From: Escherichia coli
GTDB taxonomy: Bacteria; Pseudomonadota; Gammaproteobacteria; Enterobacterales; Enterobacteriaceae
Strand: one strand, 5' to 3'
Assembly (NCBI RefSeq): GCF_003334405.1
Contig: NZ_QOWM01000053.1
Length of the DNA: 773 nucleotides
The position numbers were made by a program, and so were the translations under genes. Position 1 is the stretch's first letter. The number at the start of each line of letters is the position of its first letter. Shown here piece by piece: positions 1 to 773 of the stretch. Below the pieces are notes generated by a model, which saw only the letters and a list, made by a program, of their open reading frames with translations, was not told the origin of the DNA and did not search any database.

Positions 1-773
1 CACATGCTGAGGGTGCTGTCCGGGTGCAGCTCCGGGTCGGGCAGGCGGTTACCTGCCGGGTCTGTGGCATACGGGATGCGGATATCCAGATTCGCTGCGG
101 TGGTGTGAACGCCGGTCAGCCTGCCGGTGGTGCTGTAGCTGTAACTCCGGGTCTGGCGCGGGCTGCTGATGCGGATGAGTTCGCCGTTGTCGTTCCAGGT
201 GTAATCGCGGTCAGACAGCAGGCTGTTCAGGTGCTGGCTCTGTAACTGCCCGGCAGGGGTATAAGCGGTGGTGAGTTCATAACGGCCGAAGCTGCGCAGC
301 GTTTCCCGGTGCAGGCGGTCGCGGGTGTACTCCACCAGCGGTGTGTCGCCGAGTTTCATGCCTGCCAGGTAACCGCTGCCGTAGGTCAGCCATTCCACGG
401 CGGGCAGGCTGTCCGGTATACAGCGGTTCGCCAGCCCCTGCGCGTTGTACGCATGTCTGGTCTCATGCTGCCAGAGCAGTGCTTCCGTCTGCGGGTGATG
501 CACCGTCTGACGCTCACCGGTCAGCCGGCCTTTCTCATCATACCTGTAATGCACCGCCACCCGGTGCCCTTCGCTGATATGGCTGATGTCTGTCAGCCAG
601 CCACGTTCGTCATACTGCCACCGCTCTGCGGTTTCACCCTTCACGGTGCGGTGCGTGAGGCGGTCTGCTTCGTCATAGTGCCAGTGGGTGACCAGACCCT
701 CATCCTCGCTGCGGATAAGTTTGCCGGTCAGGTCGTGGTGATAACGCTGTGTGCGGCCGTCAAAGCCGGTTTC
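1..773 (-). CDS. rhs: Rhs-family YD-repeat protein, internal core fragment (partial at both ends; polymorphic toxin scaffold)
   Basis: Seen in sequence: reverse-complement frame with first full codon at 773..771 (GAA) and last full codon at 5..3 (ATG) is open for 257 codons with no stop; positions 2..1 are the first two bases of the next codon. Translation contains canonical YD-repeat motifs (RTQRYHHDLTGKL, THWHYDEADRLT, ERWQYDERGWLT, VHYRYDEKGRLT, RDYTWNDNGELI, RSYSYSTTGRLT) at about 21-24 residue spacing. Leucine codons are dominated by CTG and third positions are G/C-rich, as in enterobacterial genes. Established knowledge (from memory, not a database search): the stretch GFDGRTQRYH.DLTGKL ... 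WQYD..GWLTDISH.SEGHRVAVHY.YD.KGRLTGE ... LLWQHET.HAYN.QGLANR..PDSLP.VEWLTYGSGYLAGMKLG.TPLVEYTRDRLHRET.RSFG ... TYTPAGQLQSQHLNSL ... IRIPYATDPAGNRLPDPELHPDSTL is the conserved core of E. coli-type Rhs proteins. The specific paralog (rhsA/B/C/D/E or other) cannot be assigned from this fragment. Confidence 0.93.

Follow-up and report, generated by a model that had tools for sequence, protein, structure and literature searches.

A 773-nt Escherichia coli window, very probably internal to a conserved Rhs core, is joined to at least three toxin/immunity modules

To which gene does a 773-nucleotide stretch of Escherichia coli DNA (hereafter the window) belong, and what follows where its reading frame runs off the edge at position 1? 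A first-pass annotation had placed a gene of the Rhs type on the minus strand, running past position 1, with the variable toxin tip and its cognate immunity gene just outside the window, where any new biology was to be sought. Six-frame translation of the whole window confirmed the direction. The minus-strand frame beginning at base 773 is open over all 773 nt, with no stop in 257 codons, and each of the other five frames contains 1-14 stops. Given the base composition of the window, 257 stop-free codons would arise by chance with a probability of ~9e-4. The translation ends in ...IRIPYATDPAGNRLPDPELHPDSTLSM, exactly the last residues that had been quoted. The Met codon occupies nt 3-5, leaving nt 1-2 to open the following codon, which is Trp in RhsA and RhsB. 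The frame exits at position 1 because the window ends there, and for no other reason.

The window is identical to E. coli K-12 MG1655 rhsA over 773 of 773 nt (locus L001 6001-6773; gene L001 4003-8136), and equally to K-12 rhsB (773/773 nt; locus L002 6001-6773; gene L002 4003-8238). In both genes it corresponds to gene nt 1999-2771 and codes for residues 667-923, of 1377 aa in RhsA and of 1411 aa in RhsB. Against the RHS_core model (NCBIfam NF041261), the window protein scored 535 bits (E=3.3e-160) over profile positions 675-937 of 1261, leaving 324 profile positions after the match. The whole-protein cut-off of this equivalog model is 2000 bits; full-length RhsA and RhsB score 2647 and 2644 bits, and the window falls below the cut-off because its protein is only a 257-aa fragment. 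Pfam RHS_repeat matches within the window cover RhsA aa 680-712 (window nt 636-734, minus strand; E=7.4e-4), aa 720-754 and aa 859-892 (window nt 93-197, minus strand; E=4.6e-4). The last of these RHS/YD repeat units is also matched by TIGR01643 (YD_repeat_2x), at residues 193-227 of the window protein.

Megablast located the window in 3,901 of the 5,426 complete E. coli genomes searched (median, 5 places in a genome), and 1,146 records in this set match it at 99% or better. From the open frame, the nucleotide identity to rhsA and rhsB and the NF041261 match, we conclude with high confidence that positions 1-773 (minus strand) lie wholly inside an Rhs core ORF that continues past both ends of the window, and that the gene encodes an E. 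coli Rhs polymorphic toxin of the RhsA/B/C/F subfamily, with the window in its conserved, GC-rich core. The same high confidence attaches to the explanation as a whole, with core, boundary, tip and downstream immunity gene taken as one reading. The window thus belongs to an already-known gene family; rhs was described in 1984 and is among the E. coli repeat families known longest.

The segment singled out for attention, nt 1-60 on the minus strand, consists of the codons for ...PAGNRLPDPELHPDSTLSM plus the two bases that begin the Trp codon after them. As had been stated, this segment still belongs to the conserved core, with 58-60 of 60 positions identical in all 19 sampled E. coli loci; it carries no special feature and nothing new. 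Overlapping it, a regex scan of RhsA and RhsB picked out PYATDPAGN (nt 48-74, minus strand), a YD-repeat-type DPxG element at aa 904 and one of four DPxG in the protein. We do not take this element for a hidden end-of-core motif: only three residues stand between P and DP, where the motif has four, it ends in N, and the core continues past it.

Where, then, does the core end? The annotation had seen neither a stop nor the PxxxxDPxGL demarcation motif in the window, and both absences hold. The same regex scan found PxxxxDPxGL in the two K-12 proteins at aa 1238-1247 only, as PVTNTDPLGL in RhsA and PISDIDPLGL in RhsB. The core therefore runs for 324 more codons (972 nt) beyond position 1 to the end of the motif, and the immunity gene begins ~1.4 kb past position 1, so that the tip and its partner do not lie just outside the window as had been proposed.

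We inferred the downstream anatomy from 19 loci that carry the window at 95-100% nucleotide identity, sampled out of ~20,000 matching places. Judged by their flanks, these loci come from four chromosomal sites: yibF/selA for rhsA, nikR for rhsB, ybfA/kdp for rhsC and rpmE/priA for rhsF. The motif ends at exactly +324 aa in 16 of the 19. In K-12 rhsA, the core has a GC content of 0.59-0.66, which drops to 0.38 immediately past the boundary (L001 7600-7999, with the drop at L001 7800), and at matched loci the boundary is followed by an AT-rich tip of 130-164 aa. A small ORF comes after each tip at the sampled loci; yibA, yhhH, yibG, ybfB, ybfC and others are the candidate immunity genes. The predicted order of DPxGL motif, GC drop, short divergent tip and small ORF is thus seen at the matching loci. 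The earlier interpretation is partly supported: it was right on direction and architecture and wrong on proximity.

One sampled locus departs from the usual motif. In strain UTAK-14 (L010, ~4714-4743), a variant boundary, PVQYIDSMGL, stands at the usual offset before a ybfC-partnered tip, with DSMGL in place of DPxGL. This variant would be of interest if C-terminal autocleavage needs the aspartate/proline context of DPxGL.

The window could instead derive from a truncated or pseudogenised core copy, broken soon after position 1 by a frameshift, an IS element or a deletion, and left without a functional tip. Damage of this kind is known in the family. One sampled locus (L018) is frameshifted 340 codons after the window start, with the motif at the boundary place in another frame; one megablast match (H102) aligns to the window in two pieces at 92% coverage; and IS elements lie in or beside tips and immunity genes in L003, L004 and the top matches of the three module searches described below. 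A further locus, L005, is annotated as frameshifted, yet its translation reads through to the tip. Against this explanation, 17 of the 19 loci read in frame from the window to a tip, including all seven that carry the exact 773-mer. Furthermore, the orphan core fragments downstream of rhsA hold only the last few hundred bases of the core (in the orphan at L001 9029-9985, high GC extends only to ~9400) and are therefore not the source of aa 667-923. We consider a broken copy very improbable, and return to the intact core as the origin of the window.

Next comes the question of which rhs locus the window represents. At the nucleotide level, rhsA equals rhsB over gene nt 1894-3107 (1,214 nt), and the first difference downstream lies at gene nt 3108, 337 nt past position 1. 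Assignment to a single locus was rejected: the window is shared without a difference by rhsA, by rhsB and by strains other than K-12 that carry a third tip. Since rhsA and rhsB are identical across it, the locus is not identifiable from the window. K-12 RhsA (WP_000015300.1), paired with YibA, has the same core and boundary offset and shows no difference in the window, matching at 773/773 nt over aa 667-923; K-12 RhsB (WP_000015298.1), paired with YhhH, likewise matches fully and differs from rhsA outside the window only. Comparing the two K-12 genes, we observed only five differences before nt 3108; from there on, differences grow steadily more frequent up to the tip boundary. This pattern fits gene conversion and recA-dependent crossover between rhsA and rhsB. 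Such recA-dependent crossover is the origin of the family's name.

Among the seven loci that match all 773 nt (L001-L007), three unrelated tip/immunity modules occur. The first, T1 (L001 and L004), combines an Ntox34 tip (PF15606, E=6.5e-44) with the HEAT-repeat immunity gene yibA. The second, T2 (L002, L003 and L006), has a DUF4329/Tox-JAB-2 tip (PF14220, E=9.9e-40) and the immunity gene yhhH. The third, T3 (L005 and L007), has a 162-aa tip with GGHG...FSC residues and the immunity gene yibG, which encodes Sel1 repeats. Counted at 80% coverage or more among the 5,426 complete E. coli genomes, T1 occurs in 1,757, T2 in 2,684 and T3 in 3,429. Because the same 773-mer is joined to three different modules, the window does not determine the tip: what follows the exact sequence is T1, T2 or T3, and the window does not show which. 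Any stretch taken from within the rhs core is likewise uninformative about the tip, with at least three toxin/immunity modules found on one 773-mer.

Two of these modules correspond to published pairs. Zhang et al. 2012 (PMC3482391) paired the all-alpha Ntox34 domain (GNxxD...WxCxH) with Imm-HEAT, and Tox-JAB-2 (=DUF4329; H[ST]H) with Imm-NTF2 family 2. The RhsA tip shows RGNVAD and WNCRH, bearing the GNxxD and WxCxH signatures, and together with HEAT-repeat YibA it reproduces the first pairing. The RhsB tip shows YHTHG, with the HTH motif. One downstream protein of the sampled set matches Imm-NTF2-2 (E=3.4e-26); because of the published pairing we read this match as presumably YhhH, and the RhsB tip with presumed Imm-NTF2-2 YhhH would then fit the second. 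For the first module there is also functional background: as summarised by Poole et al. 2011 (PMC3150448), Vlazny & Hill 1995 found that the RhsA C-terminal region blocks recovery from stationary phase and that yibA neutralises it. The tips behind the sampled exact-window loci are not new, given that all three modules are common in E. coli and the first two pairings are catalogued.

Tip and immunity genes do lie beyond position 1, but at exact-match loci they are common modules already in public genomes, which undercuts the expectation of new biology there. The outcome that the annotation itself had named as counting against it, a core continuing into a known, characterised tip, is largely what is seen: T1-T3 are widespread, T1 and T2 are catalogued, and RhsA-CT/YibA was tested in 1995, as that summary gives it. 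The sequence pointed to lies outside the window, and all of the matching loci that we examined have it in a common form that already carries annotation. The earlier inference was a correct textbook reading of a known gene, and its significance is small.

Across all 19 loci, tips vary far more widely. We counted nine distinct tips in seven mutually unrelated classes, at window identities of 95-100%. The Pfam domains among the nine are Ntox34, DUF4329 (in two tips), Ntox16 and Peptidase_M91; four of the nine had no Pfam match at E<=0.001, and NCBIfam matched none of the nine. T3 is presumably among the four. Such free exchange of tips on one core, and the share of tips that these two libraries leave unmatched, favour the idea that the window's own locus joins the common core to a tip/immunity pair unseen in public data, that is, to a new toxin. 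This idea is set against the seven exact-window loci, all of which carry modules found in 1757-3429 of 5426 genomes. Many of the 100% window matches are moreover K-12 laboratory derivatives, and the window itself says nothing about the tip. We regard an unseen pair as slightly less probable even than a broken core copy, and give equally little credence to a new toxin fold, or an uncharacterised activity, ~1-2.3 kb beyond position 1 in the window's own genome. An ordinary core followed by one of the common modules is the reading that we retain.

Exchange of tips can be followed directly for T3. In K-12, the T3 tip is an orphan (a silent cassette) downstream of rhsA. It is fused to a full-length core in L005 and L007 (4744-5705), and also in L012 and L016; strains with the T3 tip fused to the main core are FORC 064 and YZ_2_2. 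In L005 and L007, where the T3 tip sits on the core, the Ntox34/yibA module is absent. The fusion is a clear natural case of C-terminal displacement (Jackson 2009, PMC2935791) in which the core has retained all 773 nt of the window. The GGHG and FSC residues of the tip are suggestive of a putative His/Cys enzyme. The orphan copy of T3 in L009 is labelled 'DUF8616' by PGAP.

Two further tips are found on somewhat more divergent cores. In L017 (4744-5142; window identity 96.4%), the tip contains HEMGH and is likely the source of the single weak Peptidase_M91 match (E=9e-4). In L019 (4744-5651; window identity 95.5%), the tip is a Cys-rich 136-aa domain. Each of these tips is followed by an ORF annotated 'hypothetical protein', a candidate immunity gene.

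To place the window in the whole protein, we searched RhsA aa 1-1200 against Pfam, which returned DUF6531 at aa 46-123, many RHS_repeat units (three of them in the window) and an RHS domain at aa 1143-1179. The Rhs-associated core domain (Rhs_assc_core, TIGR03696) lies at aa 1170-1247. Among solved structures, the relatives of full-length RhsA include Tse5 (8cp6; E=7e-128 over RhsA aa 286-916, spanning the window region) and several other T6SS Rhs cocoons. In solved homologues, YD repeats wind into a closed beta-shell, one end of which is plugged by the conserved C-terminal region. This region is also an aspartyl autoprotease, dependent on PxxxxDPxGL, and the cleaved tip stays in the shell until delivery while an immunity protein guards the producer (PMC8765631).

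Residues 667-923 are YD repeats and, by analogy, would form part of the wall of a beta-shell, or cocoon, around the C-terminal toxin. At every intact matching locus the core continues for 324 codons, through the Rhs-associated core domain (aa 1170-1247), to PxxxxDPxGL; by analogy, this domain would serve as aspartyl autoprotease and plug. The AT-rich tip and the adjoining candidate immunity gene follow this boundary at the matching loci; the tip is predicted to be cut off after the motif and kept encapsulated, and the immunity protein would neutralise it in the producer.

The likeness to the solved systems (P. aeruginosa Tse5, 8cp6; the Rhs family protein 7q97; P. protegens RhsA, PMC8765631; and the TcB/TcC cocoon) consists of the YD-repeat shell, the C-terminal Rhs-associated core domain with PxxxxDPxGL, and the encapsulated tip. 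However, the solved T6SS Rhs effectors are distant paralogues with other N-terminal delivery domains, whereas DUF6531 occupies aa 46-123 of the E. coli protein, and no PAAR Pfam match was obtained at the RhsA N-terminus at the thresholds used. Nor was an adjacent vgrG seen for the K-12 genes. Their neighbours are yibF/selAB for rhsA and nikA-R for rhsB, with yibF and nikR upstream; no vgrG, PAAR or T6SS gene was found beside either gene in the stretches examined, and no vgrG in the 4 kb upstream.

Other features of the window were also considered. Rfam (E<=1) returned nothing above threshold, its single match, sR32, scoring 16 bits against a gathering score of 40. No promoter-like sites were found in the window, and one terminator-like site was present versus 0.5 expected. 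Plus-strand ORFs (e.g. 24-245 and 341-577) were rejected as chance: they are antisense to a gene 100% identical to rhsA/rhsB, in DNA of 62% GC.

Several records show local damage around the tips. In strain ECCHD184 (L004, 5744-7188), the Ntox34 tip is truncated by the IS5-family element ISKpn26. The last 25 aa of the tip, including WNCRH (WxCxH), are replaced by read-through sequence, and yibA is missing along with the stretch up to mtlA; toxin tip and immunity gene appear to have been lost together. In strain 300709 (L003, 6210-7370), an IS1 is inserted in yhhH, just after an intact rhsB with the DUF4329 tip. For each of the three tip/immunity modules, the records that score best also have an IS1A copy within the module, and IS1 insertion in rhs tip/immunity regions seems recurrent.

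Finally, the plasmid collection gave two very short records assigned to Klebsiella, H32 (NZ_CP069926.1; 5.2 kb) and H37 (NZ_CP069827.1; 2.3 kb), in which this E. coli rhs core is present at 96-99% identity. Rather than genuine plasmids, these seem to be pieces of chromosome that were misassembled or mislabelled.
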